Shown piece after piece: positions 11,073-64,000 of a DNA stretch of 64,000 nucleotides. Each line of letters opens with the position of its first letter. The first letter of the stretch is position 1. The notes under the pieces are model-generated. The model was not told the DNA's origin. It ran no database searches and saw nothing but the letters and a program-made list of their open reading frames with translations. Origin of the DNA: Bacilli bacterium (lineage in GTDB: Bacteria > Bacillota_I > Bacilli_A > RFN20 > CAG-826); assembly GCA_017635465.1 (NCBI GenBank), contig JAGBLL010000036.1, positions 4,590 through 68,589 of the forward strand. The letters are read 5' to 3'. The position numbers and the translations under genes are program-made.

Positions 11073-11080
11073 TCCTTTCC

Positions 11081-14206
<3,126 letters not shown>

Positions 14207-14214
<8 letters not shown>

Positions 14215-14455
14215 TCAAAAAGGACATGTTACGGACTTGAATTTGATCACCATGGTATAATTTACGACCACGACGATTTTCCTCTTCTCCGTTTACTAAA
14301 ACAGTGTTTTCACTAAGAAAGTATTTTGCTTGTCCACCAGTATCAATAACACCAGTAATCTTAAGCAAAATGCCTAACGTGATGAAGGTTTCACCTTCCC
14401 TTAATTTCACACTTTTTTGGGCCACAAAAAACTCCTTAGAATTATTATAAACCAT
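14207..14455 (-). CDS. yaaA: S4-domain RNA-binding protein YaaA.
   Basis: GGQAKYFLSENTVLVNGEEENRRGRKLYHGDQI matches the conserved YaaA core. Canonical position between dnaN and recF. The true start may be internal. Confidence 0.7.
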
Positions 14456-14459
14456 ATAA

Positions 14460-14487
14460 ATAAAAAAGGGAATAAAATATTCCCTTA
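14460..14487 (-). terminator. Intrinsic terminator after dnaN.
   Basis: AAGGGAATA-(short loop)-TATTCCCTT hairpin followed by a T-run on the minus strand. Confidence 0.6.
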
Positions 14488-14519
14488 ATTTATATAGTCT
14501 CTAAAATAGGTGTTTTTGC

Positions 14520-15641: not shown

Positions 15642-15783
15642 ATTTATTCCCTTCTATTTTATATATTTATTATATTAATAATAATATTAATGTTTGTGGA
15701 CATTGTGGATAACTTGATTTTTCTTAATTATTTTCATTATACCACATCACATGTCCTATTTGAATTTTTTATTTTTAATAAAA
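15642..15783. other. oriC part 2. An AT-rich DNA-unwinding element plus DnaA boxes TGTGGACAT and TGTGGATAA in the dnaA-dnaN spacer.
   Basis: A perfect TGTGGATAA consensus box at 15705-15713 and an adjacent 1-mismatch box. A ~45-bp AT-only stretch at 15650-15694. Confidence 0.75.
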
Positions 15784-17163
15784 TCAATTAGACTTTAAGC
15801 TGTTTTGTAAAGTATTGATTACCGCTTTTAATGACTCATCGGTTTTCAACATGTTTTCCACTTTTTCTATACCGTTCATCACAGTGGTATGATCTCTGCC
15901 ACCAAAGACATTACCAATTTTAGTAAGTGGAACATCTATATTAATTCTTATTAAATACATAGCGATGTGTCTAGCTAAGGCGATTTGCCCTGTTCTGACC
16001 TTACCCACTAACTGGGTTGGCGCTAGATTGTAGTAGTCTGCAACAACGTTAATAATCTTTTGTTCTGATAGTTGTGTTGCAGCGCTTTTGATACCGGTGA
16101 TACTTTGAACTGCTTCAATCGCAGTATCCAAATCTACATGTTTAGTTTGCTCAAAATCACTGATGTGGAAAATTAACCTATGGAACGCACCTTCTAACTC
16201 TCTAACATTACTGCTGAATTTTTCAGCGTAGAAGTATAGAACTGCAGGGTCAAAATCTTCAACATTTAAGCCTTCGTTAATGATTTGTTTTTCAAGGATC
16301 TTAACGCATGTATTTTGGTCTGGATCATTAATTTTTACGGTCAAACCCTGGCTGAATCTTGTTACAAGACGATCTTCTAAGCCTTTTAATTCATTAGGTT
16401 GTCTATCAGATGTAATAACGATTTGTTTATCACTATTGACCATCTTCTGATAGATGTAGAAAAACATCTCTTCGGTTTTAACCTTATTTTCAAGGAATTG
16501 AACATCATCAAATAAGAGGACATCAACTGTGGAAAAGAAGTCTTTTAATGTCTCTGATTCTCCACCTTTGACGAACTTAATGTATTCATCCACAAAGTCA
16601 TTGGCGTTGATGTATAAAACCTTTGCGCCAGGCTTACTTGTGTTTTTGATATAGTTACCGATAGCGTGCAATAAATGAGTTTTGCCTAAACCAGAATTTG
16701 AATAGATAAATAATGGGTTGAAAACCTTTCCTGGTCTTTTGGCAATCATTGTTGCAGCTTTATATGCTTCTTTATTGAATTCACCTTCCACAAATGAATC
16801 AAAAGTTAAATTGCTTTTTAATTCAGCGTCTTTAAAAAATGAGAATTGATCGTCAACTTTACCTTTATTTGTGCTTTGAACTGAAACTGTCTTTTGCGCA
16901 TCTTCTGCAAGGATGAATTTAAAACCACAATTTTCTTCAGTGACATCATAAAAAGTCTCTTTGATTAAATCTATATATTTAGAGGAGAGCAATCTTTGTG
17001 ATGTGAGATCCTTCACCACCACGACAACGTTATCCCCATTTATTTCATGAATATAAGTGTTAGCAAAAAAACTATCAAAGATTTGCCTTTCGTTTAGTCT
17101 TTCGTCTAGTAAGTTGAGTGTTTGTTGCCACACTCTGGCCATCTCTGATACTGATTTATTCAT
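15784..17163 (-). CDS. dnaA: Chromosomal replication initiator DnaA.
   Basis: AAA+ motifs GLGKTHLL, the DnaA signature domain IV, and the position. The ORF-track start (17247) lies inside a DnaA box. The internal Met (MNKSVSEMARVWQQ) at 17163 with an AGGTGA RBS is the more likely start. Confidence 0.9.
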   Translation of the reverse strand: MNKSVSEMARVWQQTLNLLDERLNERQIFDSFFANTYIHEINGDNVVVVVKDLTSQRLLSSKYIDLIKETFYDVTEENCGFKFILAEDAQKTVSVQSTNKGKVDDQFSFFKDAELKSNLTFDSFVEGEFNKEAYKAATMIAKRPGKVFNPLFIYSNSGLGKTHLLHAIGNYIKNTSKPGAKVLYINANDFVDEYIKFVKGGESETLKDFFSTVDVLLFDDVQFLENKVKTEEMFFYIYQKMVNSDKQIVITSDRQPNELKGLEDRLVTRFSQGLTVKINDPDQNTCVKILEKQIINEGLNVEDFDPAVLYFYAEKFSSNVRELEGAFHRLIFHISDFEQTKHVDLDTAIEAVQSITGIKSAATQLSEQKIINVVADYYNLAPTQLVGKVRTGQIALARHIAMYLIRINIDVPLTKIGNVFGGRDHTTVMNGIEKVENMLKTDESLKAVINTLQNSLKSN

Positions 17164-17239
17164 AACGTCACCTGATTTCGTGTCAACCATTATAGAATAA
17201 TTCACATCCGTTTTGTATGCGTAATTTATAGAAAAAAAG

Positions 17240-17355
17240 TTTTCCACATTTGTTAGTTTGAATAATTACACTATAGGGAGTTTTCCACATTTCCACATCT
17301 TTGTTTTTGTGGATAAGTTTTCCACTTTTCCCCAGTCTGTGGATTTGTGGAAATA
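17240..17355. other. oriC part 1. A cluster of at least 6 DnaA boxes upstream of dnaA.
   Basis: TTTTCCACA (x2), TTTCCACAT, TGTGGATAA (perfect, 17308-17316), TTTTCCACT, TGTGGATTT and TGTGGAAAT, all read directly. Confidence 0.8.
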
Positions 17356-17467
17356 ACAAAAATATTTCACCTTCTAAAAATATAAAAAATCATAAAAAAC
17401 TGATTTTGTTTGACATTTATTTATAAATGCTATTAAACTTAACTCGCTATGTAAGGAGGTTTCTTTT

Positions 17468-17602
17468 ATGAAAAGAACATATCAACCAAGTAAAATTAAA
17501 CATCAACACAAGGCTGGATTCCGTGCTCGTATGAAATCCGCAAATGGTCGTCGCGTTCTTGCTCGTCGTAGAGCTAAAGGCAGAAAAAAATTAGCTGACT
17601 AA
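17468..17602 (+). CDS. rpmH: 50S ribosomal protein L34.
   Basis: 44-aa [47 protein letters not shown], missed by the 60-aa ORF cutoff. Canonical partner of rnpA. Confidence 0.9.
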
Positions 17603-17615
17603 TCAGAGGAAGATT

Positions 17616-17939
17616 ATGAAAGTTATTAATCGTATTAAAGCAAGTGATGACTTTGCTCTAGCGATTAAAAAAGGCAAAGCTCAGCGTAACCAATCGTTTG
17701 TCATCCACTATCGCCCAAATGAATTTACTTATACACGAGTGGGCATTTCTGTTTCTTCTAAATTAGGTAACGCTGTGATTCGCAATCAAGTCAAAAGACA
17801 AATTCGATCAATGTGTGATTCATTAATTGAATACAATTCTCAATCATTCGATATTGTTATCATCGCTAAATCAAATTTCCTAAATCGTTCGTTTGATGAT
17901 AACAAACAATCATTGCAAGAATTATTAAATTTTAGATAG
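17616..17939 (+). CDS. rnpA: RNase P protein component.
   Basis: 107 aa, basic. Follows rpmH. Confidence 0.85.
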   Translation: MKVINRIKASDDFALAIKKGKAQRNQSFVIHYRPNEFTYTRVGISVSSKLGNAVIRNQVKRQIRSMCDSLIEYNSQSFDIVIIAKSNFLNRSFDDNKQSLQELLNFR

Positions 17940-17949
17940 GACTTATTAA

Positions 17950-19458
17950 ATGAAAAAAAGAACAAAACTTACTGTAGGAGCAATGACAGTTCTTGCTGGT
18001 GTGCTTCTTTTATCTAGTTGTACTGCTTCATTTTGTTCAAATATTGATAAAGCTCATATTCTTTATGCTTTTGATTATGGTGTTTCCGACTACTATGAAA
18101 CTCAAGAGGAAGGAACATTACCAGTCTTTGAAGATAATCCATACGTATTCTATAAGGCTGTAATGCCAAGCTCTAACAATAGTGGTATCGGTAAAGCAAA
18201 TGCTGATGCTGCTAAAGCAGGTATTCAAACACCAAGCACTAATTACTATGTCCAAATGGATAAATTAGTGTTAACCAATGCTCTTAAAAAGAGCAAAGGT
18301 GATTCAGTTGACTTAAAAAAAGTCACTTATGCAGAAGTTATTGATGCTTTAGATGATTATGGTTATCTCAAATTCTACGTTGAAGAAGGCGATAAACCAA
18401 AATTATGGAATAACTGGACAAAATTAAACGATGAACTTAGAAAACAAACCGCTGTCGCTGGTAGTGGCATTGTGATGGATGATTTACCAAGCAATGACTA
18501 CCTCGCAATTTATCAAAAAGATATGAATGCTTTAATTGCATCGTATCGTTCATGTTTAGCTATTGATAAAGCGGATTATGGTTACTATGGTTACGCTAAT
18601 GGTGCCCATTATCGTGAGAACAAAACTGCAGTAGAAATCCAAGCCAAAGACTGGGGATATGCCTGGAAAAAAGGTTTCTTAGAAGGCTTATTAATTTTCC
18701 CAATTGGCTGGTTAACAGAAACATTTGTTAAAACATTTAAAAACGGTGGTGTTGCTGGTGGTGTAGCCCAGCTACTCGCCATTTTCCTCATCACATTCAT
18801 CGTTAGATCTTTAATGCTTGTCGTTACTATCAAACAAACAACAGGTAATGCAAAAATGCAGGCCCTACAACCTGAAATTGCAAAAATTCAAAACAAATAT
18901 CCTAATGCCAACACCAATAACTACGAAAAACAACAAATGGCCGCGGAAATGCAAAAATTATATAAGAAGAACAAGATTAATCCTCTTAGTACACTTCTAG
19001 TAATGATTGTTCAATTCCCAGTATTCATCTGTGTTTGGGGTGCTTTGCAAGGATCTGCAAGCTTATCTTCAGATAGCTTGTTCAATTTACATCTTTCTGA
19101 CTCAATTAATACCGTCTTATTTAACGGTGCTAACTGGGCTAATGGTAGTGCAGTAACTGCATTAATCCTCTTCTTGTTGATGGCGGCAGCCCAAGTAATG
19201 TCTATGTTGCTTCCACAATTCATTCAAAAAGCAAAACGTAAAAACATTACAAAATTAGGCAAGAATCCTGCTCAAAATCAACAAGCAAATAATATGAAAA
19301 TGTTCACCTATATCATGATGGCAATGATTATCTTTATGGGTTTCACATTACCAAGTGCGATGGGTGTTTATTGGTTCGTCGGTGCCTTATTCTCAATTAT
19401 TCAAACATTAATTGTTGAATGGGTTACTCAAAAAAGAGCCAAAAAGAAAGGAAGATAA
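17950..19458 (+). CDS. yidC: Membrane protein insertase YidC/Oxa1-family lipoprotein with an unusually long (~250 aa) N-terminal extracytoplasmic domain.
   Basis: Lipobox LLSSC. C-terminal 5-TM insertase core and basic tail KRAKKKGR. 502 aa, against ~260-300 for typical Gram-positive YidC. Confidence 0.8.
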   Translation: MKKRTKLTVGAMTVLAGVLLLSSCTASFCSNIDKAHILYAFDYGVSDYYETQEEGTLPVFEDNPYVFYKAVMPSSNNSGIGKANADAAKAGIQTPSTNYYVQMDKLVLTNALKKSKGDSVDLKKVTYAEVIDALDDYGYLKFYVEEGDKPKLWNNWTKLNDELRKQTAVAGSGIVMDDLPSNDYLAIYQKDMNALIASYRSCLAIDKADYGYYGYANGAHYRENKTAVEIQAKDWGYAWKKGFLEGLLIFPIGWLTETFVKTFKNGGVAGGVAQLLAIFLITFIVRSLMLVVTIKQTTGNAKMQALQPEIAKIQNKYPNANTNNYEKQQMAAEMQKLYKKNKINPLSTLLVMIVQFPVFICVWGALQGSASLSSDSLFNLHLSDSINTVLFNGANWANGSAVTALILFLLMAAAQVMSMLLPQFIQKAKRKNITKLGKNPAQNQQANNMKMFTYIMMAMIIFMGFTLPSAMGVYWFVGALFSIIQTLIVEWVTQKRAKKKGR

Positions 19459-50451: not shown

Positions 50452-53400
50452 ATGAAGAAAAAGATTTTGCTCCCTGTTCTTCTTATGGGTATGGCTCTAC
50501 CTTTTGCCATTGGTGGCACATATAGTGGAGTTAATGCGGAATTTATTGGGGATTATTCCGCACAAGCCGCTTACACAAAAGCCGGTTCTGCTTTGAACGC
50601 TGAAATTTGTGATGAAGGCTTCGTCCTATTAAAGAACAAAGACAATTTCTTACCAATGCAAGCAGAAGGCGCGAAGATTTCTGTCGTTGGTAAGAGTTCA
50701 GTCAACCTCGTTAGAGGTGGTGGCGGTTCCGGTAGTGGCCGTGTTAACGGTGAAACCGCAATCGATTTACAACAATCGTTAGAAAAAGTTGGTTTCTCTT
50801 TAAACAAGAAATGCACAGATTTCTATAAGAGTGACTCTAAATCCGGTCCAGGCAGATCTAACGGCAATGATAACTGGAAGGGTAATTCTCAAGTGCAAAT
50901 TGGTGAAACACCAATGGCGATGCTTGAAAAAGAAAGTGGCTTAATTGATAGCTTCCAAGAATATGGTGACGCCGCAATTATGACCATCTCCCGTGAAGGT
51001 AGTGAAGGTTGTGACGTTAAAGCAATCGACGCTCGTGACTTTGACCCATCCAGTGGTAGACTCTCTGGTGTTACCGCTGGTGATGTAACAACAAAACACG
51101 CCTTACAATTATCCGATAACGAACAAGCCTTATTCGATTTAATTTGCGAAAAGTTTGAACACGTTATCATCCTTATCAACTCTGGTAATATCTTCCAATG
51201 TGACCAATTTGAAAATAATGATAAAGTTTCCGCGGTCATTTGGATGGGTAACCCAGGCGCGGTTGGTACAGGCGCAATCGGTCGTATTTTAACTGGTGAA
51301 GTCAATCCATCAGGTCGTACAGTCGATACATGGGCTCGTAATTTCAAAAATGACCCAACATATCAAAACTTCTCCGATAACTCTCAAACAAACGATAAGA
51401 TTATCGAAGTAACAGTTAATAACAAAAAGAAACAAACATATGCTTCTCAAGACACAATGTTCGCAGAAGATGGCGCTCCAATGCTCAGCTATGGTACTGA
51501 TAAAGCTTACAAAGATCACTCTTCTCCAAGATGGGTCAATGAAGAAGCAAAAGTGGTACAAGGTGGCTTAAATGGTGTTAAACCAGCTTCCTATGTCGCT
51601 TATGAAGAAGGCGTCTATGTTGACTATAGATACTATGAAACCCGTTATGCTGAATTAGCTAAAAAAGATAAAAAAGCCGCGGATGAATGGTATAAAGGTG
51701 ATGAAGGTGTCATCTATCCATTCGGTTATGGTTTAAGCTATACAACATTTAAACAAGAAATCGTTTCATCTAACGTTAAAGGTAAAACGCTTAAAAATGG
51801 TAATACCAACGTTGAAGTGAAAGTCAAAGTTAAAAATACTGGTGGCACCGCTGGTAAGGAAGTTGTCCAACTTTATTGGAAAGCTCCATATAAGCAAGGT
51901 GGTATTGAAAAAGCCAATAATGTCTTATGTGCTTTTGATAAGACAAGAATGTTGGATCCAGGTGAAGAACAAGTTCTTACTTTAACATTTAACACACAAG
52001 ATGTCGCTAACTATGACTTCGCTGATAAGAACAATAATGGCTTCTGTGGCTATGAATTAGATGGTGGTACATACTACATCTCATTAAACAAAAACGCTCA
52101 TGAAGAATTAGGTTCTATCAAGTTCTCTGTTGCTAAAGATGGCATCAAGTTTGAAACAGATCGCTATACAGGTCATGAAGTTAAGAACAGATTTACTGAC
52201 AGAGGCTTCTATAGCTGCTTACCAGGTGAAAATGATATCGGTTTTGAACAATTCTCACGTGCTGATGGTTTAGCAACAAAACCAACACACCCAACAATTG
52301 AAGATAGAAAAGTCAAAGTGGGTAGCCGTTATGAAGAATTCTTAACACACGAATTCACATTAAATGACTTAGAAGATGGTAAAGGTGAATATCTCCCATT
52401 AGAAATGCTCAAAACAAAAGAAGACATTGAAGCTTTAGGCTGGACACAAAGAGCAACAACCGCTAGTAAAGCTGAAAGTATCCAATTCAAAGATTTGGTC
52501 GGTCTTGATATGGATGATCCATTATGGGAACAAGCCATGGATCAAATGACATATACAGAATTATTAAGCTTCTCCTATGGTGGTGGTAACCACAATCCTG
52601 CTATCAGCAGAATGGACAAACCAGGCACAGGCGATAGCGATGGTCCTTCCCAATTCAAATACATCTGGTGGGCAGGCGCACCAATCGTGGCCGCGACATA
52701 CAACGTCGAATTAGCCAAGAGACAAGGCGAAATGGTCGGTATTGAAGCTCATATTTCTGGTACATATGGTTGGGCTGGTCCAGCTGTCAACTTACACCGT
52801 TCTCCATTCGGTGGCCGTAACTTCGAATACTACGCTGCTGATCCATTCTTAATGGGCCGTATGGCAGGTAGAGTCGTTGCTGGCGCAACTGATAAAGGTT
52901 TATATTGCTTCTTCAAGCACTTTGCGGTTAACGATCAAGAAAAGAACCGTGAAGGTACATCAGTTTTCTTAACTGAACAAGCTTTACGTGAAATTTATCT
53001 CAAACCATTCCAAATGGTTGTTCAAGAAGGTAAATCCATGGCCTTAATGTCATCCTATAACCGTTTAGGTAACATGGAAACCGCTGCTAGCTATCCATTA
53101 TTAACAGAAGTTCTCCGTGATGAATGGGGCTTCAAAGGTCACATCATTTCCGATATGACTCATAGCGGTAACTCCTCCGTTAACTATAAGTGCTATGAAT
53201 GCATCAATAACCGTATCTTAGCGGGTTGCAACCAACAATTAGATAGTAACGGTTTCAGAAGTGATATCACATGTAAGTGGGATGCTACCGCATTTGAAGG
53301 TAAAGGCGCTCCAGTATACACAAATAAAGCTGGTCAAACAGTTGAATGCTACACATGGTGGTACATGCTTAGAAAGAACGTTAAAGAATCAATGTGGACA

Positions 53401-53838
53401 TGCGCTAACTGTGGTGTTATGTCAAAGACATTCATCAAGAATGCTAACTTAACATTTAATGGTGTTGAACGCGAATATCTCGAAGTCAAAGTTGGTGAAG
53501 AAATTAACATCAAAGTTGATATGCCAGATGAATTAGCGGGTGCAACATTATCCATCGACCCAGTTACTCCATTACCAGAAGGTTTAGTCTTCGAAGACAA
53601 TACCATCAAAGGTAAATTAACTGATGGATGTAACGTCTTTATCCACGTCTTAGCGGAACTCAATGGTACAAAGACTGGTTCAAGTATCCAATTATTTGCA
53701 CCAAAAGTTGCTGCTCAAGCTCCTGCAAAAGGTGGTTGTGGTGGTGCTATTGAAGCCACATTAGTGGGTGTTGGCTTACTCGCTCTTGCGACCGCAATCG
53801 TCCTCATTGTTGATAAAAAAAGAAGAGTTAACGCCTAG
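50452..53838 (+). CDS. Secreted, C-terminally membrane-anchored family-3 glycoside hydrolase (paralog 1) with reversed domain order: GH3 C-domain, Fn3-like, GH3 catalytic barrel.
   Basis: Signal peptide. PGAVGTGAIGRILTGEVNPSGRTVDTWARNF is the GH3_C motif. YPFGYGLSYTTF...VKNTGGTAGKEVVQLY is the Fn3-like domain. KHFAVNDQE...SYNRLGN...GFKGHIISD carries the catalytic-barrel nucleophile region. C-terminal KGGCGG + TM + KKRR. Confidence 0.8.
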   Translation: MKKKILLPVLLMGMALPFAIGGTYSGVNAEFIGDYSAQAAYTKAGSALNAEICDEGFVLLKNKDNFLPMQAEGAKISVVGKSSVNLVRGGGGSGSGRVNGETAIDLQQSLEKVGFSLNKKCTDFYKSDSKSGPGRSNGNDNWKGNSQVQIGETPMAMLEKESGLIDSFQEYGDAAIMTISREGSEGCDVKAIDARDFDPSSGRLSGVTAGDVTTKHALQLSDNEQALFDLICEKFEHVIILINSGNIFQCDQFENNDKVSAVIWMGNPGAVGTGAIGRILTGEVNPSGRTVDTWARNFKNDPTYQNFSDNSQTNDKIIEVTVNNKKKQTYASQDTMFAEDGAPMLSYGTDKAYKDHSSPRWVNEEAKVVQGGLNGVKPASYVAYEEGVYVDYRYYETRYAELAKKDKKAADEWYKGDEGVIYPFGYGLSYTTFKQEIVSSNVKGKTLKNGNTNVEVKVKVKNTGGTAGKEVVQLYWKAPYKQGGIEKANNVLCAFDKTRMLDPGEEQVLTLTFNTQDVANYDFADKNNNGFCGYELDGGTYYISLNKNAHEELGSIKFSVAKDGIKFETDRYTGHEVKNRFTDRGFYSCLPGENDIGFEQFSRADGLATKPTHPTIEDRKVKVGSRYEEFLTHEFTLNDLEDGKGEYLPLEMLKTKEDIEALGWTQRATTASKAESIQFKDLVGLDMDDPLWEQAMDQMTYTELLSFSYGGGNHNPAISRMDKPGTGDSDGPSQFKYIWWAGAPIVAATYNVELAKRQGEMVGIEAHISGTYGWAGPAVNLHRSPFGGRNFEYYAADPFLMGRMAGRVVAGATDKGLYCFFKHFAVNDQEKNREGTSVFLTEQALREIYLKPFQMVVQEGKSMALMSSYNRLGNMETAASYPLLTEVLRDEWGFKGHIISDMTHSGNSSVNYKCYECINNRILAGCNQQLDSNGFRSDITCKWDATAFEGKGAPVYTNKAGQTVECYTWWYMLRKNVKESMWTCANCGVMSKTFIKNANLTFNGVEREYLEVKVGEEINIKVDMPDELAGATLSIDPVTPLPEGLVFEDNTIKGKLTDGCNVFIHVLAELNGTKTGSSIQLFAPKVAAQAPAKGGCGGAIEATLVGVGLLALATAIVLIVDKKRRVNA

Positions 53839-53857
53839 TTAACACCTCATAATAATC

Positions 53858-53886
53858 AAGGCCCTCTCTGAGGGTCTTTTTTATAA
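53858..53886 (+). terminator. Intrinsic terminator after GH3 paralog 1.
   Basis: GGCCCTC-tct-GAGGGTC hairpin followed by TTTTTTAT. Confidence 0.65.
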
Positions 53887-54113
53887 AATAGTTAGATTTA
53901 ATCATTAAAAAAACAAAAGCGTAATATGTTCAAATCTAAAAATTGTCTTACCTACACAATACATTTGTCATATAAAAAGAACCCTCTTCAATTTATATTG
54001 AATGTACTAATGCATTATGGATTCTAGAAGATAATGAATTGATAAAATCCAGTTTTGTACTCGTACTGAGGCAAAATAAAATAATGCAAACTTACTTTTG
54101 AAAGGAAAAACAT

Positions 54114-57100
54114 ATGAAGAAAGTATTGATTCCAGTTTTTCTTGCCGCGATGGCTTTACCATTATGTTTAAACAAAGGTGCTAACGCTGCGAACGCTGAA
54201 TTTATCGGTGAATTCACAGATAGAACCTCCTACATTAAACATGGTTCTGCAGTCAACGACCAATTAGCAGATGAAGGTTTCGTCCTATTAAAGAATGAAG
54301 GCAACTTCTTACCAATGGCCGCTGAAGGTAAAAAAGTTACTCTCGCTGGTAAGAGCTCAACAAAATTAGCCGGTGGTGGTGCTGGTTCAGGTGCTGGTTC
54401 CACATCTCAAGGTGTTACCGGTATTGACATGAAGAAGTCCTTAACAGACGTTGGCTTCGAAGTTAACCAAAAATTCATTGATTTCTACAACAGCGACACC
54501 AAATCAGGTCCAGGTAGAACAAACGGTAACGATGGTTGGAAAGGTAACTCCCAAGTTCAAATCGGTGAAACCCCAATTTCCATGTATGAAAAAGAATCTG
54601 GTTTATTGGAAACACTCGATGAATACAAAGATGCCGCTATCCAAGTTATCACCCGTGAAGGTTCCGAAGGTTGTGACGTTAAAGCAATTGACGCTCGTGA
54701 CTTCGACCCAGCTAGTGGCAAAACTGCTCCATCCGGTGTTGATGTTAATGAAGTTTCAGACAGACACGCTCTTGAATTATCCAAGAATGAAGAAGCTTTA
54801 TTACAAGAATTAGAAAAACACACAGACAACGTTATTATCGTTATCAACTCATCCAATATCTTCGAATGCGCTAAACTCGAAAACGATCCAAAAGTTAAAG
54901 CCATTCTCTGGATTGGTAACCCAGGTGACCGTGGTGCGGGTGCCGTCGGTAGAATTCTCTCCGGTCAAGTCAACCCATCTGGTCGTACAGTTGATACATG
55001 GGCTCGTGATTTCACACAAGACCCAACATATCAAAACTTCTCCGATAACGCTCAAACAAATGAAAACATCATTGAAGTTACCGTTAACGGTAAGAAGAAA
55101 AACACAAATGCTGCTCAAGACACAATGTTCGCAGCAGATGGTTCCCCAATGCTCAGCTTTGGTACAGATAAAGCTTATAAAGACCACAATGCTCCAAGAT
55201 GGTTAAACGCTGATGCTAAAGTTGTCCAAGGTGGTATCAATGGTGTTAAACCAGCCGCTTACGTTTCATACGAAGAAGGTATCTATGTTGACTACCGTTA
55301 CTATGAAACAAAATATGCCGATATGGCTGCTAAAGATAAGAAAGCCGCTGATGCTTGGTATAACGGTCAAGACGAAAAGAAGGGTGGCGTTATCTACCCA
55401 TTCGGTTATGGCTTAAGCTATACAACATTCGAACAAAAGATCGTTAAAGCCAACATTAAGAAAGGTGGCAAGATCAATGAAAAGAACGAAGTTATCGCTG
55501 TGACTGTCGAAGTTAAGAACACTGGTAAAGTCGCTGGTAAACAAGCCGTTCAACTTTATTGGAAAGCCCCATACAAAGCTGGTGAAATTGAAAAAGCTGA
55601 TCACGTCTTATGTGCATTTGGTAAATCACCAATGCTCGAACCAGGTGAAAAAGCAAACGTCCACTTATCATTCTATTTACAAGATGTTGCTAACTACGAC
55701 TTCACAGACGCAAATAAGAATGGCTTCAAGGGTTACGAATTAGATGCAGGTAAATATTCCTTATTCTTAGGTAAATCCGCCCACGAAGCATACGAAAACT
55801 TCAACTTCTCCGTTGAAAAGAACATCAAATACGAAAACGATCGTTTCTCCGGCCACAAAGTTGAAAACAGATTCACTGACAATGGCTTCTATAGCTCAAT
55901 GCCAGGTGAAAAAGATATCGAATTCACACAAATGAGCCGTGCTGATTTCGATAAGACATTCCCAACTCACCCAACCTTCGAAGATAGAAAAGTCAAAGAA
56001 GGTAGCAGATTTGAAGAATTCTTAACAACTGAATTCTCACTCGCTGATTTCGAAGCTGGCAATAACGAATACGTTCCTGCCGCTGCTCGTAAAGATGCAA
56101 GCGTTGCTGCTAACTGGAAACAAGGTTCTAAAGACACATCCCACAAGATCATTGACTTAAAGGATACCGAATTAGATGATCCAAGATGGGAAGAACTCGT
56201 CAACCAAATCTCTTGGGCTGATATGCTCAAAGTTGTCGAAACAAATAGAATGTCCTCACAAGCTATCTCCAGCGTTGGTAAAGCTGGCTTCTCTGAAGGT
56301 GACGGTCCACAAAAATTCAACATTATGTGGTGGGTCTCTTCTCCAATTATCGCCGCTACATTCAACCAAGACTTAGCTCATAAACAAGGTGAATGCGTTG
56401 GTATGGAATCTCAAATCAGTGGTAAATCTGGTTGGTGGGGTCCAGCTGTTAATACACACCGTTCTCCATTCGGTGGTAGAAACTTCGAATACTATGCCGC
56501 TGATCCATTCTTAATGGGCCGTATGGCTGCTCAAGTCGTCGGTGCCGCTACAGATAGAGGCGTCTACGCATACTTCAAACACTTTGCTGTTAACGATCAA
56601 GAAAAGAACCGTGAATCCGGTATCTCATTCTTAACAGAACAAGCATTACGTGAAATCTACTTAAAGTCCTTCCAAATGGTCTTTGAAGAAGGTAAATCCA
56701 TTGGTGTCATGGGTTCCTATAACCGTATGGGCTTAATGGAAACAGCCGCTAACTACAACTTATTAACAGAAGTTCTCCGTGGTGAATGGGGCTTCAAGGG
56801 TTCTGTCTTATCCGATATGACCCACAGTGGTAATGGTTCCGTTAACTTCAACTGCTACGAATGTGTCACAAACCGTGTCTTATCCGGTTGTAACGCTCAA
56901 TTAGACTCTGGTGGTTTCTCTGGCGCTTCCCAAGCAAAATGGGATAATACACAAAATGCTCCATTATATACCGCTAAAGATGGTTCTAAACAAATCTCTT
57001 ACTCTTACTGGTATGCTGTGAGACAATGCACAAAAGAACATATGTTCATGGCTTCACGTTGTACAAAGACACATACCGATGCTGGTATTAAGATGATTAA

Positions 57101-57461
57101 ACCTGATGGTGAAGAATACGTCAATTTCGAAGCTCGTAAAGCATTCGAATATGCCTTACCAGAAGGTAACTTCAGACTCAACCAACGCGTTGATTTACCA
57201 CGTGGTGTTAAATTCGAAAACAACAAACTCTCTGGTCAATTTGATTGGGAAGGTGTTTACCACTTAGACTTCATCAAAGTTGATGATGCAGGTAAAGCCG
57301 CTGGTGCATTCAAATTAATCGTTACCGCAACAACAGGCAATGCTTTAGGCAAAGGTGGTTGTGGTGGTGATATCGCCGCTGTCGGTGCTATCATTGGCTT
57401 AATCGCTCTCGCTGGTGCAGGTTTATTACTTGTCTCCATCCGCAAAAAACAAAGAGCGTAA
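54114..57461 (+). CDS. GH3 glycosidase paralog 2, with the same reversed domain order and C-terminal KGGCGG + TM + RKKQR anchor.
   Basis: Domain motifs collinear with paralog 1: GNPGDRGAGAVGRILSGQVNPSGRTVDTWARDF, YPFGYGLSYTTF, KHFAVNDQEKNRE, GFKGSVLSD. Confidence 0.8.
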   Translation: MKKVLIPVFLAAMALPLCLNKGANAANAEFIGEFTDRTSYIKHGSAVNDQLADEGFVLLKNEGNFLPMAAEGKKVTLAGKSSTKLAGGGAGSGAGSTSQGVTGIDMKKSLTDVGFEVNQKFIDFYNSDTKSGPGRTNGNDGWKGNSQVQIGETPISMYEKESGLLETLDEYKDAAIQVITREGSEGCDVKAIDARDFDPASGKTAPSGVDVNEVSDRHALELSKNEEALLQELEKHTDNVIIVINSSNIFECAKLENDPKVKAILWIGNPGDRGAGAVGRILSGQVNPSGRTVDTWARDFTQDPTYQNFSDNAQTNENIIEVTVNGKKKNTNAAQDTMFAADGSPMLSFGTDKAYKDHNAPRWLNADAKVVQGGINGVKPAAYVSYEEGIYVDYRYYETKYADMAAKDKKAADAWYNGQDEKKGGVIYPFGYGLSYTTFEQKIVKANIKKGGKINEKNEVIAVTVEVKNTGKVAGKQAVQLYWKAPYKAGEIEKADHVLCAFGKSPMLEPGEKANVHLSFYLQDVANYDFTDANKNGFKGYELDAGKYSLFLGKSAHEAYENFNFSVEKNIKYENDRFSGHKVENRFTDNGFYSSMPGEKDIEFTQMSRADFDKTFPTHPTFEDRKVKEGSRFEEFLTTEFSLADFEAGNNEYVPAAARKDASVAANWKQGSKDTSHKIIDLKDTELDDPRWEELVNQISWADMLKVVETNRMSSQAISSVGKAGFSEGDGPQKFNIMWWVSSPIIAATFNQDLAHKQGECVGMESQISGKSGWWGPAVNTHRSPFGGRNFEYYAADPFLMGRMAAQVVGAATDRGVYAYFKHFAVNDQEKNRESGISFLTEQALREIYLKSFQMVFEEGKSIGVMGSYNRMGLMETAANYNLLTEVLRGEWGFKGSVLSDMTHSGNGSVNFNCYECVTNRVLSGCNAQLDSGGFSGASQAKWDNTQNAPLYTAKDGSKQISYSYWYAVRQCTKEHMFMASRCTKTHTDAGIKMIKPDGEEYVNFEARKAFEYALPEGNFRLNQRVDLPRGVKFENNKLSGQFDWEGVYHLDFIKVDDAGKAAGAFKLIVTATTGNALGKGGCGGDIAAVGAIIGLIALAGAGLLLVSIRKKQRA

Positions 57462-57493
57462 TCTTAGAATTAGATTCTAACTAAAACATGCAA

Positions 57494-57528
57494 AGCTGCT
57501 AGGGCCGTTTGCGCCCTAGCAGTTTAAT
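57494..57528 (+). terminator. Stem-loop terminator candidate after GH3 paralog 2 (weak U-tail).
   Basis: GCTGCTAGGGC-cgtttgc-GCCCTAGCAG followed by TTTAAT. Confidence 0.45.
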
Positions 57529-57701
57529 GCATATACTACGTATACACGCACAAACAATAGTGATATGCTATAGGTAACTAAAATTGTTAATAAAGCATCA
57601 TCTTAAATCGTCCGTATTAAGATGGCGCTTGATTATAAATCCCTAGAAAGGAGAATATTATTCGGCAGTTAAGTCTAGGGTTACCCGGATAATGAATTAT
57701 T

Positions 57702-58739
57702 ATGAAAAAGAACAAATTATTTTTCTTAGGTATGATGGTTGCTACACTCGCTTTAGCTGGTTGTGGTAAGGGTGGCGATAGCGCTGCTTCTAAATCATCT
57801 AAAAAAGATTCCAGTGTTGATGATAGCGAACCACAAATCGTCTTACCTGATTACAAAGTCGTGATTGACTACAATGATGGCACAACCGCCAAGATTGAAA
57901 AGACCATTCACCATGGTGATCCAATCGAAAAACCAACAGATCCAACAGCTCCAGCTGGTAAGAAATTCTATGGTTGGCAAAACGTTAAAAACGGTGGCCA
58001 AATTTGGGATTTCCAAGCCGAAGATCTTAAAGGCGTTTTTGAAGACGTTGAATTAAAACCATTATTCGTCGATGCTTCTTTACCAGTTCAATCTCTTGAA
58101 GCTGAATTATGCCCAGCTATTACCGAAGACCACGGTGGTCAAGGTATGGAAGGTGCGACATATTCCGGTGGTGCTAAAGGTAAACAATTAATTAACCGTG
58201 CTTATGACGGTGAATACGCTGCTTCTGGTGCTTACTGGCAAGATGACAGTGGTACAGTCCGCTATGCTAAAGATAGTGATCCAGCAGATGAAGTCTTCGG
58301 TGGTTATGTCCACTTCATGTATGCTAAAGGTGATACATTAACATGGAAAGTTAGTAGTGATGCTGCTGCTGAAAACGTTACCATCTTCATGAGATTAGCT
58401 GGTGAATATGCTAAACCAGATGAACAAACAGGTGAAAAGAAATTCACTGTTACTGATGATGAATTCCAAATCAAAGTCAATGGTACCGCTCTTAAATACG
58501 GTAAAGTCACTCTCCACAATATTCCTGAAACTGGTAAATTCACTACATTCCAAGATTACTATGTGAGTGCTACAGTCTCCTTAAAGGCTGGTGAAAACGT
58601 TATTCAAACAGTCGTTAACAACGACATTAACTTATTCTCCACAATTGCCGCTGCTGCTCCATGTGTTGATAGTATTAAAGTTTTATCCACAAGTACACTT
58701 ACTTGGGCAGATGCAAAAATTAGCCAATTAGAAAGATAA
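57702..58739 (+). CDS. Lipoprotein with a Listeria-Bacteroides (Flg_new) repeat and a C-terminal beta-sandwich carbohydrate-binding-module-like domain.
   Basis: Lipobox LAGC. YKVVIDYNDGTTAKIEKTIHHGDPIEKPTDPTAPAGKKFYGWQ matches the Flg_new repeat. Stop is 4 nt before GH3 paralog 3. Confidence 0.55.
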   Translation: MKKNKLFFLGMMVATLALAGCGKGGDSAASKSSKKDSSVDDSEPQIVLPDYKVVIDYNDGTTAKIEKTIHHGDPIEKPTDPTAPAGKKFYGWQNVKNGGQIWDFQAEDLKGVFEDVELKPLFVDASLPVQSLEAELCPAITEDHGGQGMEGATYSGGAKGKQLINRAYDGEYAASGAYWQDDSGTVRYAKDSDPADEVFGGYVHFMYAKGDTLTWKVSSDAAAENVTIFMRLAGEYAKPDEQTGEKKFTVTDDEFQIKVNGTALKYGKVTLHNIPETGKFTTFQDYYVSATVSLKAGENVIQTVVNNDINLFSTIAAAAPCVDSIKVLSTSTLTWADAKISQLER

Positions 58740-58743
58740 GATT

Positions 58744-61620
58744 ATGGGTATCGGTAAAAAATTACTAAAGCCTCGCGTTATTGCTTGGGGCGTAACAACA
58801 ATCGTTATGGCTGGCGTTTTAATCGCCGCTAACATTGTTTGTAATGGTTACCTTGCTTCCTTATTAAACGGCACATTCTTCGGTGGCCCACAACCTATCG
58901 TCGATAAAGATGATAAAGGCATTCCATTTGAACAAGACTTTGCCTCTAAAAAAGAAGCCTTCAATTATGGTAACGAAGTTACACAAAGAATTTGTGAAGA
59001 AGGTATGGTTCTTCTTAAAAATGAAAACAATACCCTTCCATTACAAAAACAAGCCAAAATTACAGTCTTTGGCAGAAACTCAGTTCAATTAGTTTATGGT
59101 GGTTCTGGTTCCGCTGCTCCAGGTGGTAGTGATAAAGACAGAAAGACCATTGAACAATCGTTAGAAAAAGCTGGTTTCAAAGTCAATCCAGAAATGAGAA
59201 AGTTCTACGAAAAGCAATCTGGTCGTAGTGCTAACCCTGCTATGGAACACGGCGAAGGTATCCCAACTTTAAAAACTGGTGAAACAGAAATTAGCAAATA
59301 TACTGACGCTGTTAAAAATTCTTATAAGGATTATCAAGATGCCGCTCTTGTCGTCTTCTCACGTATCGCTGGTGAAAACTGGGACTTACCACGTGAAGCA
59401 GCTGATAACGCCTCTCGTCATTATCTTGAATTAGATAATAATGAAAGAGATTTATTAAGACACATTGCCGCTTCTGGTTTCCAAAAAATCATTGTTTGTA
59501 TCAATGGTTCTAACTATATTGACCTTGGCTTCTTAAAGCAAGAAACCAACGCTACTGATTATAACGATTTCGGTAAAAACGTTAATGCCGCTATTAACAT
59601 TGGTTCTCCAGGTGAAAACGGTATTATGGCGTTAGGTAGACTTCTCTCTGGTGAAGTCAACCCATCCGGTCATACAGTTGATACTGTTTATACAAATTAT
59701 TCCAAAGACCCAACATGGGAAAACTTTGGTGGTAACTTCTCTGATGGTGGCGATAACTACTTAACAATGGACGGTAAAGCCACTGCCTACTACACTGTCG
59801 ACTATGAAGAAAACATCTACATGGGTTATAGATATTACGAAACCCGTGGTGCGGTTGATGGTGAAGATTGGTACAAAGCTAATGTCGTTTACCCATTTGG
59901 CTATGGCTTAAGTTACACTAAATTCAGTCAAGAAATCGCTAACAAAGCCGCTCTTGAGGGTGCTGCTTTAGAAAAAGACAAGACATTCGATGTCGAAGTC
60001 AAAGTTACCAATACTGGTGATGTCGCTGGTAAACAAGTTATCCAACTTTACGCCAGTGCACCATATACCGCTAATGGTATCGAAAAAGCTCATAAAGTCT
60101 TAGTGGGCTTTGGCAAAACAAAAGAATTAGCTAAAGGCGAATCTGAAACATTAACAATTACTGTTGATCCATATCACTTCGCTAGCTTCGATTCTAAAGA
60201 CAAAAATAACAATGGCTTCAAAGGTTATGAATTAGAAAAAGGCGATTACAAATTCTACGTTGCTGAAAACGCACACGATAGCGCCTTATACTTCACAAAG
60301 AATTTAGCCGCTGATGCTAAATTTGAAAAAGATCCATTAACAGGATACGAAGTTAAACCATTATTCGATGAAGTCACAAGTGCGATGAAAGAAAGCTTAT
60401 CTCGCGCTGACTTTGCTGGTACATTCCCACATAGAATTACCGACGATGAAAGAAAGATCAATGATGAGTTCCTTGCTAAATTAAAATCCAAAGCATCTAC
60501 AAACGATGAAGAATACTCTACTGTTCCAGCAATGGGCAAAGATAGAGGTTCCGTGATGCTTAAGGACTTAGCAGGAAAGAACTATGATGATCCATTATGG
60601 GAAACATTCCTTGATCAGTTAACTTTCAAAGAAATGCTTACCTTATTCAATGAAGGCTGTTATTCCACAGCCGCTATCCTTGATCTTGGTATTCCAAGAA
60701 CAACATCATGTGACGGTCCTACAGGCTTAGTTGCCTTCTTAGGTGACCCAGCAGTTTATGGTACATGTTACTATCAATCCGAATGCTTATTAGCCCAAAC
60801 CTATAGCATTGACCTTGCTAAAGAACAAGCTAAAGCCATCGGTAATGAATGCTTAATCGGTAGTGAAAAGACTGGCTTATCATACCCAGGTTGGTATGCT
60901 CCAGGCGTCAACTTACACCGTTCTCCATTCTCTGGCCGTAACACTGAATACTATTCAGAAGATCCATTCTTAAATGGTAAATTCGCTGGCACAGTCATCA
61001 AAGGCGTGCAAGAAAAAGGCGTTTACGTCAACATCAAACACTTTGCCTTAAATGATCAAGAAACACACAGATCCGCAAACGGTATCGCCACATGGTGTGA
61101 TGAACAAGCAATGCGTGAACTTTACTTAAAAGCCTTCGAAATCGGCGTTAAAGAAGGTAAAGCACACGGTTTGATGACATCCTTCAACCGTATCGGTACT
61201 GAATGGGCTGGTGGTTCCTATCGCTTAGTAACAACCATCCTTAGAAAAGAATGGGGCTTCCAAGGCTCAGTTATCTGCGACTTCCATACAGACTTCTATA
61301 TGGACAGTAAGCAAATGTTATATGCTGGTGGTGACATCAACATGGTCAGCTTAGAAGACCGTAAATTAACAACCGAAAAGAAATATGGTACTCCAACAGT
61401 TTCTGAAAAGAACGCTAAGGACGTGACCTTATTAAGAAAAGCCGCTCATAATAACTTATTCGCGATTGCTAATAGTAACGCGATGAAAGCTAATATTAAG
61501 GGCTATTTACCAGCTAAGTGGCAAATCTTGTTATACTGCGTCACTGGTGGTGTCGCTCTCGGCTTAGCGGTTTGGGGCTTCTTCGCAATCTTTACTACAT
61601 TACGTAAAAAAGAAGACTAA
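58744..61620 (+). CDS. GH3 glycosidase paralog 3, with an N-terminal signal anchor and a C-terminal TM anchor. Same reversed domain order.
   Basis: GSPGENGIMALGRLLSGEVNPSGHTVDTVYTNY (GH3_C), YPFGYGLSYTKF (Fn3-like), KHFALNDQETHR...SFNRIG...GFQGSVICD (barrel). N-terminal TM IAWGVTTIVMAGVLIAANIV. C-terminal TM plus RKKED. Confidence 0.8.
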   Translation: MGIGKKLLKPRVIAWGVTTIVMAGVLIAANIVCNGYLASLLNGTFFGGPQPIVDKDDKGIPFEQDFASKKEAFNYGNEVTQRICEEGMVLLKNENNTLPLQKQAKITVFGRNSVQLVYGGSGSAAPGGSDKDRKTIEQSLEKAGFKVNPEMRKFYEKQSGRSANPAMEHGEGIPTLKTGETEISKYTDAVKNSYKDYQDAALVVFSRIAGENWDLPREAADNASRHYLELDNNERDLLRHIAASGFQKIIVCINGSNYIDLGFLKQETNATDYNDFGKNVNAAINIGSPGENGIMALGRLLSGEVNPSGHTVDTVYTNYSKDPTWENFGGNFSDGGDNYLTMDGKATAYYTVDYEENIYMGYRYYETRGAVDGEDWYKANVVYPFGYGLSYTKFSQEIANKAALEGAALEKDKTFDVEVKVTNTGDVAGKQVIQLYASAPYTANGIEKAHKVLVGFGKTKELAKGESETLTITVDPYHFASFDSKDKNNNGFKGYELEKGDYKFYVAENAHDSALYFTKNLAADAKFEKDPLTGYEVKPLFDEVTSAMKESLSRADFAGTFPHRITDDERKINDEFLAKLKSKASTNDEEYSTVPAMGKDRGSVMLKDLAGKNYDDPLWETFLDQLTFKEMLTLFNEGCYSTAAILDLGIPRTTSCDGPTGLVAFLGDPAVYGTCYYQSECLLAQTYSIDLAKEQAKAIGNECLIGSEKTGLSYPGWYAPGVNLHRSPFSGRNTEYYSEDPFLNGKFAGTVIKGVQEKGVYVNIKHFALNDQETHRSANGIATWCDEQAMRELYLKAFEIGVKEGKAHGLMTSFNRIGTEWAGGSYRLVTTILRKEWGFQGSVICDFHTDFYMDSKQMLYAGGDINMVSLEDRKLTTEKKYGTPTVSEKNAKDVTLLRKAAHNNLFAIANSNAMKANIKGYLPAKWQILLYCVTGGVALGLAVWGFFAIFTTLRKKED

Positions 61621-63316: not shown

Positions 63317-63952
63317 CTATTGATTAGCCTCTTCGGAGGCTTTTTTCATTTCTATCTTTTTATCGAAATAACGATATATAAAGAAGAAAGCGATTCCACC
63401 GATAACCATTAATATGGACCAGAACTGTGATGGTGTTAATCCTGGAATAAAAGCGCCTCTTTCATCGTTTCTAACAAATTCAATTAATAATCTCCAAACG
63501 CCGTATCCGATAAGATAGACACCCATATTGTATTTAAAATGGAATTTAAAATATAAAACAATCATCACAGCACTTATTAAAAACAAGAAAACAGCCTCAA
63601 ATAACTGCGTAGGGACTTCTTTATGTAATTCCCCAGGAAATTGCACGCCAAACCACATATCGGTCTCTATACCGCCACAACAGCCGGCAAAAAAGCAACC
63701 TATACGACCAAAGCCATGGGCTAATGTAATTGATATAGGGGCAAATCTTAATAATTCCCAGACACCTTTATTCATATCAGACTTAAAGATGTTCTTTTCT
63801 TTTAGTCTTGGATTAATAACGTAAACGTATAAGAAATATAAACCAAGGTAGACAATAACTCCACCTAATAGACCTCCTAAGAAGGTCATCTTACCGGTAA
63901 ACTGGAATCCTCCACTTGGATTAGCGATAAAGTCATAAATTGATTGCACCAA
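63317..63952 (-). CDS. lgt: Prolipoprotein diacylglyceryl transferase. The N-terminus probably runs past the window end.
   Basis: Lgt signature HGFGRIGCFFAGCCGG and downstream FPxQLFEA. Confidence 0.75.
   Translation of the reverse strand: MVQSIYDFIANPSGGFQFTGKMTFLGGLLGGVIVYLGLYFLYVYVINPRLKEKNIFKSDMNKGVWELLRFAPISITLAHGFGRIGCFFAGCCGGIETDMWFGVQFPGELHKEVPTQLFEAVFLFLISAVMIVLYFKFHFKYNMGVYLIGYGVWRLLIEFVRNDERGAFIPGLTPSQFWSILMVIGGIAFFFIYRYFDKKIEMKKASEEANQ
63324..63348 (+). terminator. Intrinsic terminator for the unknown lipoprotein gene. It is embedded in the 3' coding end of the convergent lgt.
   Basis: AGCCTC-ttcg-GAGGCT hairpin followed by TTTTTTCATT. Confidence 0.6.
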
Positions 63953-64000
63953 TGAGCCAAATAATAGACCTAAAGCAATAGCAAAGAAACCAATAATTAA

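Follow-up and report, generated by a model that had tools for sequence, protein, structure and literature searches.

A 64,000-nucleotide stretch of contig JAGBLL010000036.1 from the Bacilli bacterium assembly GCA_017635465.1 (referred to here as the window) carries three tandem GH3 glycosidase genes on its + strand (Table 1). The products of the first two genes, paralogs 1 and 2, each have an N-terminal signal peptide and end in a K-G-G-C-G-G motif, a hydrophobic stretch of 23 to 24 residues, and a basic tip. A sequence-only reading of the window had pointed to these tails as a candidate protein-sorting signal, and both tails proved to be exactly as it had quoted them. Paralogs 1 and 2 are 56% identical overall; the approximately 130 residues ahead of the tail barely align, and the tail itself then realigns. 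Such a tail is found in no further open reading frame (ORF) of the window.

Paralog 3, which is 35% identical, had been read as carrying a related CVTGG tail. Its C terminus cannot be aligned with the tails of the other two paralogs, its Cys lies buried inside the transmembrane (TM) helix, and the hidden Markov model (HMM) of the tail described below had no match in it. Among the orthologues of paralog 3, the Cys is not conserved, and the copy at a related locus (L126) has no Cys at all. Given these differences, paralog 3 ends in a plain TM anchor, and the proposed relationship does not hold. The domain order is permuted in all three GH3 proteins (50452 to 61620), with Glyco_hydro_3_C first (approximately residues 58 to 323), then an Fn3-like domain, and the catalytic Glyco_hydro_3 N-domain last (approximately residues 746 to 930).

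Table 1 Features of the GH3 genes and of the adjoining CPBP-LGT gene pair (window coordinates unless a locus is named)
Feature	Coordinates	Strand	Remarks
GH3 paralog 1, cargo	50452-53838	+	1,128 aa
Paralog 1 signal peptide	~50452-50538	+	Cut after VNA, judged by eye
Paralog 1 motif KGGCGG	53728-53745	+	Cys at 53737-53739 (residue 1096), 32 residues from the C terminus
Paralog 1 TM helix	53746-53814	+	Hydrophobic stretch; part predicted to be removed
Paralog 1 basic tip KKRRVNA, cytoplasmic	53815-53835	+	Part predicted to be removed
GH3 paralog 2, cargo	54114-57461	+	1,115 aa
Paralog 2 signal peptide	~54114-54197	+	Cut after ANA, judged by eye
Paralog 2 motif KGGCGG	57351-57368	+	Cys at 57360-57362 (residue 1083), 32 residues from the C terminus
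Paralog 2 TM helix	57369-57440	+	Hydrophobic stretch
Paralog 2 basic tip RKKQRA	57441-57458	+	
GH3 paralog 3, contrast, signal not carried	58744-61620	+	958 aa; N-terminal signal-anchor, C-terminal TM anchor followed by RKKED
LGT-family gene (PF01790), candidate lipid transferase for the tail Cys	63317-64000	-	Last ORF; 5' end beyond the window edge
Rce1-like CPBP gene (PF02517), same genome	L038 12399-13169	-	Start ~0.4 kb past the window; upstream of, and overlapping, the LGT gene

Conservation of the tail among GH3 homologues

We examined the best 120 homologues of paralog 1 (55 to 100% identity), which come from sources labeled as metagenome-assembled genomes (MAGs) of "Bacilli bacterium." The tail, with an invariant G-C, was present in 105 of them; the next residue was G (58 sequences) or F (41), followed by G (104). 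The Cys was retained in all 105 tail-bearing homologues and was located 32 residues from the C terminus in 83 of these. Such regularity far exceeds what chance would produce. The motif sits after Lys-rich positions and a hypervariable linker composed of PEPE or SSS runs, and a signal-like sequence was present at the N terminus of 102 of 104 tail-bearing GH3 proteins. In this alignment, the Cys core of the GGCGG motif proposed from the two paralogs stood, while its exact form did not: the core is G-C-[G/F]-G with a preceding Lys.

The tail comes in more than one flavor. In that of the GH3 proteins (GC[G/F]G-x-[ILV]-E-A-T), a Glu at position +5 after the Cys, i.e., at the start of the helix, occurs in 57 of the 105 tails; this Glu is absent from the more common GCGGSI-x-ATS flavor. 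The GH3 orthologue at L126 (15875 to 19285, - strand) has an N-terminal lipobox (LLLTAC) plus a C-terminal KKKGCFGD tail and might be lipid-anchored at both ends.

The tail as a modular C-terminal domain

A tail profile of 46 positions, built from 38 GH3 tails, was used for an exhaustive HMMER scan of 1.84 billion cluster representatives. The scan detected the tail in 349 protein clusters at an E value of ≤1e-3 and in 14 at an E value of ≤1e-10. (An earlier word-index search with the same profile, a method unsuited to a 46-residue hydrophobic query, had returned two GH3 fragments only.) Among the 150 matches listed, every tail was located at the extreme C terminus, and every one had the Cys in register; 138 read exactly GCxG, and the lengths of the carrier proteins ranged from 53 to 1,828 aa. 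The commonest form of the tail was P-A-K-K-G-C-G-G-S-I-[IV]-A-[TS]-S...L-A-G-x-G-L-L-x-x-K-K-R-K-E-D. An intramembrane Ser (+8) and an intramembrane Gly (+18) were conserved in at least 90% of the tails. The fixed spacing, together with these near-invariant residues of the helix, suggests a degree of recognition exceeding that expected of a generic anchor.

The 56 longer carriers comprised 19 Pfam families, including Endonuclease_1 (12 proteins), Flg_new (9), Big_2 (8), Big_3, PA, Peptidase_S8 (subtilase), Y_phosphatase3, Metallophos, and CBM_4_9; adhesin-like repeat proteins, nucleases, and phosphatases are thus among the tail carriers. Of 69 full-length carriers, 61 had a signal-like sequence at the N terminus, and few had a lipobox. 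Given that many unrelated exported families carry it, the tail constitutes a modular domain at the C terminus of exported proteins. The sequence-only reading had interpreted the three-part layout as that of a C-terminal sorting signal and the invariant Cys as a possible lipidation site, and its proposal would have lost its ground if the tail had been confined to the two paralogs. The opposite was found: the tail is shared by hundreds of clusters, several per genome, and the Cys is kept throughout.

Comparison with named sorting-signal models

Six isolated tails and nine full-length tail proteins were compared with NCBIfam release 20 (June 2026). Neither set matched the MYXO-, JDVT-, Synerg-, CGP-, PEP-, GlyGly-, or PGF-CTERM models, even at an E value of ≤10. 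Other models of C-terminal signals scored far under their cutoffs (PTPA-CTERM, 16.9 versus 29; Loki-CTERM, 11.5 versus 19.9; and GG_III-CTERM, 10.9 versus 22). The tails scored 14.3 to 16.5 bits on the LPXTG_anchor model (TIGR01167; cutoff, 15.9), with matches to model positions 8 to 34 only; what is matched is the generic helix with its basic tip, and the LPXTG pentapeptide is absent from the tails. In a full-text literature search, neither this tail nor a pairing of Lgt with a CPBP was found to have been described, and the preprint that defined the Cys-type signals mentions no Firmicutes, Bacillota, Mollicutes, or Lgt (10.1101/2023.06.07.544157). The earlier suspicion that the motif might belong to an undescribed signal is therefore upheld, as no NCBIfam sorting-signal model recognizes the tail. 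We conclude that the tail is a real and previously unnamed C-terminal sorting signal of the Cys type.

Hosts and genomic setting of the tail genes

We scanned one genome per GTDB species for exact occurrences of the 8-mer KKGCGGSI, using a tight alignment of nine sequences. The scan yielded 30 loci (L001 to L030) from gut, rumen, and fecal MAGs, with up to four loci per MAG. The hosts were mostly labeled Bacilli bacterium, the other labels being Mollicutes bacterium, uncultured Anaeroplasma sp., "Candidatus Enteromonas sp.," and Clostridia bacterium (two loci). At almost every locus, a tail-bearing protein with a signal peptide was encoded, and some loci had two such proteins. Among 460 ORFs of the loci examined for the window lineage, there were 38 GC tails versus 0 LPXTG-like tails, and a crude motif screen of the loci examined found no sortase, rhomboid, or exosortase signatures.

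Clustering of the neighbors of the 30 tail loci showed that the recurrent genes are limited to those for ABC sugar permeases, solute-binding lipoproteins, and AraC regulators. The contig of one tail protein from outside the GH3 family (P0143) is just 1.9 kb long. The usual setting of a tail gene is of a glycan-utilization type, with pairs of ABC sugar permeases, ABC-transporter ATPase-like proteins of approximately 530 aa, and AraC-type regulators. Two kinds of neighboring genes were considered as candidates and rejected. A family with eight TM segments (L017, 11910 to 12770) had no Pfam match and no CPBP motifs, and an LGT-like gene in L014 and L015 was not paired with a CPBP gene and formed an outgroup in the LGT tree. 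The latter is a distant Cys-rich LGT homologue located 5 to 8 kb from tail-protein genes (L014, 17972 to 20061; L015, 14700 to 15443). The L014 copy overlaps an upstream ORF of 456 aa that is soluble looking and not a CPBP. The L015 sequence is titled Alistipes onderdonkii, yet it carries Bacilli-type genes as in L014 and L018 and is thus probably misbinned.

The adjoining CPBP and LGT genes

Downstream of the GH3 genes, the window ends within an LGT-family gene, which overlaps an upstream gene for an Rce1-like CPBP protein (Table 1). The same overlap is present on a syntenic MAG contig (L031), where the CPBP gene likewise follows a Na/Pi-cotransporter gene (CPBP length, 256 to 258 aa). In NCBI nr, the two proteins have consecutive accession numbers and bear generic names (MBO6261296.1, CPBP family intramembrane metalloprotease; MBO6261295.1, prolipoprotein diacylglyceryl transferase).

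The CPBP proteins form a tight subfamily with 319 matches, of which the best 120 are 48 to 98% identical and nearly all 255 to 267 aa long. PF02517 was found in all of the matches, and residues E124, E125, R129, F158, H162, and H206, corresponding to EExxxR, FxxxH, and the second His, were invariant in 119 sequences. The HxxxN/D motif is likewise present. An AlphaFold model (predicted local distance difference test score [pLDDT], 89.7; predicted template modeling score [pTM], 0.85) has a polytopic helical fold, and its only convincing PDB match was the CPBP-fold protein SpdC (6u0o_A). Judged from its sequence, the protease looks active. Of 18,950 NCBIfam models, those it matched best were MrtJ, Mrt_core, and an ABC permease fused to a CPBP (NF041647), each with a score far under its cutoff; the scores on the myxosortase models were 21.5 versus 100 for Mrt_core (NF040914), 23.8 versus 75 for MrtJ, and 11.3 versus 195 for MrtC. 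Given these low scores, we regard the CPBP subfamily as new; the named families closest to it include some of the myxosortase type.

The LGT proteins are also divergent. They scored 78.7, 48.8, and 29.8 bits on TIGR00544, for which the Lgt equivalog cutoff is 118.9. The central Lgt signature (R-x-G-N-F-x-N-x-E-x-x-G) is replaced by an invariant R-x-G-C-x-x-A-G-C-C-x-G, which reads R-I-G-C-F-F-A-G-C-C-G-G in the window protein. The YGxxRxxxExxR segment near the C terminus is retained, and FHGGL has Leu in place of its His. A PDB search with a single LGT sequence returned nothing; a profile was needed for alignment to Escherichia coli Lgt (5azb), which was possible in the N- and C-terminal parts only.

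Neighborhood links between the enzyme pair and tail genes

The overlap of the CPBP gene with the LGT gene behind it was kept in every context examined, also where the flanking cargo genes differ. The GH3 cluster lies beside the pair in the window genome and in relatives whose CPBP is 51 to 98% identical; even in the sublineages with a CPBP of only 51 to 60% identity, the cluster still abuts the pair, and the GH3 proteins there have the tail.

For a wider comparison, metagenomes were scanned with the LGT alignment, and the best 80 loci (L042 to L121) of more than 600 stretches were examined. A CPBP gene of the same subfamily (30 to 51% identical) was directly adjacent to the LGT gene in 11 of the 80 loci. 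These adjacent CPBPs share the signature NNFP...FEE[LI]xFRG...HLxNL...QxGYSFLxG...HxxYNF. The gene order was reversed (LGT→CPBP) in 9 of the 11 paired loci, and the genomes span G+C contents of 29 to 59%. At L063 and at the related pair L071/L072, a gene for an exported protein lies immediately upstream of LGT→CPBP, forming cargo→LGT→CPBP cassettes; the cargo of L071/L072 has F5/8 type C lectin domains. The cassette cargos end in DKKPGCKTFIGGG-TM-KKKED or EEKKSGCGSFIGGG-TM-KRK, i.e., with the layout KK[S/P]GC[G/K][S/T]F, TM helix, and basic tip. Cys tails were thus present in 3 of the 11 paired loci versus 0 of the 69 unpaired loci (Fisher P = 0.002). In a neighbor-joining tree, all of the paired LGTs fell within one of two major clades (14 of ~36 versus 0 of ~45), where they were interspersed with unpaired members.

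One entire clade of Cys-rich LGTs never has a CPBP neighbor. Long "LGT" ORFs in L043 and L076 were considered as LGT-CPBP fusions and rejected, since the extensions consist of additional TM segments and contain no CPBP motifs.

Other features of the window

At least six window proteins (17950 to 63304) have a classical N-terminal lipobox. These are a YidC-like protein (LSSC), a Big_3 protein (LVGC), a Bmp protein (LAGC), a Y_phosphatase3 protein (STSC), a Flg_new protein (LAGC), and a protein of 521 aa (LVGC). N-terminal lipidation is thus heavily used alongside the C-terminal tail. The region from 8331 to 19458 spans a chromosomal origin-type region, in which gyrA, gyrB, recF, dnaN, and dnaA are on the - strand up to 17247 and yidC, jag, and mnmE are on the + strand from 17950. 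Both gene orientation and the sign of the GC skew flip at approximately 17 to 18 kb.

Proposed mechanism and rival explanations

On balance, we favor the view that the Cys of the tail is lipidated and that the helix is then cleaved off, both by the adjoining LGT-CPBP pair. The cargo, in which the signal peptide itself is observed, would be exported by Sec. The sequence implies that its C-terminal helix would then retain it in the membrane, the basic tip facing inward and the Cys lying at the outer interface. The LGT-family transferase would put a lipid, probably diacylglycerol, on the Cys thiol, and the co-operonic Rce1-like CPBP, a putative glutamic intramembrane protease, would cut just after the lipidated Cys. 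Models for such a cut are provided by Rce1, which acts after a prenyl-Cys, and by MrtX, which acts on MYXO-CTERM. The helix would be released, and the glycosidase would be tethered to the cell surface by its C-terminal lipid. The domain and its modularity, the signal peptides, the enzyme pair with its catalytic motifs intact, and the neighborhood links are observed; we infer lipidation, the identity of the lipid, the cleavage site, and the order of events. MrtX, a CPBP protease, cleaves MYXO-CTERM (generic motif, GCGC) in a Cys-dependent manner, also in E. coli, and an "Lgt-like acyl-transferase" has been hypothesized to lipidate the MYXO-CTERM Cys first (PMC11980579). For each of the four known Cys-type tails, a CPBP protease has been predicted to be the sorting enzyme (10.1101/2023.06.07.544157).

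A series of observations weighs against this processing scheme. Fourteen full-length GH3 homologues (P0036, P0057, P0064, P0078, etc.) have a Cys-less helix rich in Ala, Gly, and Val followed by KKKK instead of the tail. (Two of these, P0078 and P0057, were also considered as a natural experiment; their loci are not syntenic with the window and hence are uninformative.) No protease gene was found in the approximately 550 kb around the 30 tail loci; in this lineage, the presumed sorting operon, the CPBP-LGT pair, would therefore behave like a housekeeping operon present in one copy. The pair occupies a conserved housekeeping position after the Na/Pi transporter gene in the window clade, and in the relatives L032, L034, and L036, no tail gene is present within 10 kb of it, so that the adjacency to the GH3 genes may reflect inherited synteny. 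LGTs of the Cys-rich type are very common in gut metagenomes (>600 stretches), and 69 of the best 80 loci have no CPBP neighbor. The tails of the cassettes share just the layout and the KKxGC core with those of the window lineage, scoring <6 bits on the tail HMM. Finally, NCBI names the LGT protein of the window genome as a plain Lgt, and the protein may simply be the housekeeping enzyme required by a genome rich in lipoproteins.

The Cys-less orthologues and the absence of a protease near the 30 tail loci would be in keeping with a plain stop-transfer anchor that is never cleaved, in which the Lys-Gly-Cys-Gly collar serves for a disulfide to a partner or dimer, for reversible S-acylation, or for interaction with anionic lipids; these orthologues and the anchor of paralog 3 imply that a helix alone can hold the enzymes. 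We nevertheless consider such an anchor unlikely. Hundreds of unrelated proteins have the same G-C-x-G, invariant and at one set distance from the C terminus, which is typical of enzyme-recognized signals, as are the conserved Ser and Gly within the membrane. The cargo→LGT→CPBP cassettes of distant lineages are hard to explain without processing. Still less probable, in our estimation, is that the CPBP-LGT operon is unrelated to the tail and takes part in the ordinary maturation of N-terminal lipoproteins; the CPBP would then be an accessory protein like LnsB of Staphylococcus aureus, and the GH3 neighborhood would be coincidental synteny. The N-acylation of lipoproteins requires LnsB, which is remotely homologous to CPBP proteins (PMC7387801), and the window LGT, the only LGT gene seen, may also, or simply, be the housekeeping Lgt of a lipoprotein-rich genome, as its NCBI name, the housekeeping position of the pair, and the lipobox proteins of the window would suggest. 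However, LnsB is without the CPBP catalytic residues (PMC7387801), all of which are invariant in the present subfamily, and Cys tails are encoded by the genes immediately ahead of the pair in L063, L071, and L072; both points weaken an LnsB-like role. Furthermore, in the cassettes with a clear start of the cargo gene (L063 and L072), the N terminus of the cargo resembles a signal for signal peptidase I, and LnsB was not among the NCBIfam matches of the CPBP.

The sequence-only reading had looked to sortases, exosortases, archaeosortases, or rhombosortases as the processing enzymes. The neighboring CPBP-LGT pair and the cassettes make an enzyme of the CPBP/myxosortase type likelier, and we regard one of those other classes, encoded elsewhere in the genome, as very improbable. 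The TM helix and basic part do graze the LPXTG_anchor model, with 16.4 to 16.5 bits versus 15.9, but these matches begin after the LPXTG motif, and the loci examined have no LPXTG-like tails. Moreover, the PEP-CTERM, GlyGly-CTERM, PGF-CTERM, and other named models miss the tail, the crude motif screen gave no signature of the corresponding enzymes in the loci examined, and the Cys-type signals described before all have CPBP proteases as partners.

Significance and relationship to known systems

The tail is new as a signal; its general kind, Cys-type C-terminal sorting, is already known. With hundreds of carrier clusters, it joins the small catalogue of prokaryotic C-terminal sorting domains, and it lies in a poorly known yet abundant gut and rumen lineage, in which it flags glycosidases, nucleases, and adhesin-like proteins as surface tethered. 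Given that some isolated tails pass the LPXTG_anchor cutoff, automated pipelines could mislabel the carriers as LPXTG cell wall-anchored proteins. In a recent myxosortase paper (2025), Lgt is the leading candidate for the still-sought Cys-lipidating enzyme (PMC11980579). The LGT-CPBP operon and the cargo→LGT→CPBP cassettes are the first comparative-genomic link found between the two enzyme families. A partner operon of an Rce1-like protease and an Lgt homologue makes the question of the lipidating enzyme directly testable, and the three-gene cassettes are compact systems for this purpose.

A broader proposal, which we put forward tentatively and with less confidence than the processing scheme itself, is that an Lgt-family transferase is the lipidating enzyme of Cys-type signals and makes "C-terminal lipoproteins," with a diacylglyceryl-Cys at the new C terminus and the helix discarded. 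This would be the main surface-anchoring route of secreted enzymes in a large uncultured group of Bacilli/Mollicutes-like gut and rumen bacteria and, by extension, might apply to MYXO-CTERM and its relatives. If true, this bacterial route would mirror the Lgt/LspA pathway as well as the CAAX processing of eukaryotes.

Among the known systems, MYXO-CTERM/MrtX of Myxococcota resembles the present one in its invariant Cys within a Gly-rich motif (GCGC there and GC[G/F]G here), TM helix, and basic tip. Both have many exported carriers and a CPBP/Rce1-like protease (a candidate here), and a separate Lgt-like lipidation step has been hypothesized for MYXO-CTERM (PMC11980579). In contrast, the MYXO-CTERM model misses the present tail, and the CPBP scores 21.5 bits versus 100 on Mrt_core; the hosts are low-G+C Bacilli/Mollicutes-like gut bacteria, with no type II secretion genes in the loci examined; a Lys run precedes the motif, and the basic tip is Lys rich rather than Arg rich. 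The protease gene shares an operon with an LGT-family gene, an arrangement unreported for MrtX. JDVT-CTERM/MrtJ is likewise a Cys-type tail system, with a CPBP gene beside a single cargo, and the cassettes of L063 and L071/L072 resemble that dedicated layout. Among named NCBIfam relatives, MrtJ gives the CPBP its highest score, yet with 23.8 bits versus a cutoff of 75. Unlike this proteobacterial system, for which no LGT gene is reported, that of the window lineage is multicargo and not dedicated. The Cys-type tails of Synergistota and Thermococci also have a Gly/Ser-rich motif with an invariant Cys directly before the helix and a predicted cognate CPBP, but the taxa differ, their models miss the present tail, and no LGT partner has been described there.

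The proposed two-step logic, in which a lipid is put on a Cys of the C-terminal region and an Rce1-family protease then cuts, is shared with eukaryotic and archaeal CAAX processing by a prenyltransferase and Rce1. Unlike in CAAX processing, the part predicted to be removed here is a 30-residue TM helix with a basic tip, on the extracytoplasmic face, and the proposed lipid enzyme is an Lgt homologue. The N-terminal lipoprotein pathway (Lgt and LspA) is similar in having an LGT-family enzyme, a Gly-preceded Cys at the membrane interface, and a peptidase that removes the helix, as proposed here. It differs in that the present topology is inverted, with the Cys before the helix, in that there is no lipobox, and in that the peptidase would be a CPBP and not LspA; moreover, the LGT differs from canonical Lgt in its changed central signature and its score below the TIGR00544 cutoff. 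The tail also recalls the LPXTG/sortase system, in which a short motif, a helix, and a basic tip lie at the C terminus of Gram-positive-type surface proteins. Here, an invariant Cys takes the place of LPXTG, with no sortase signature in the loci covered by the motif screen.

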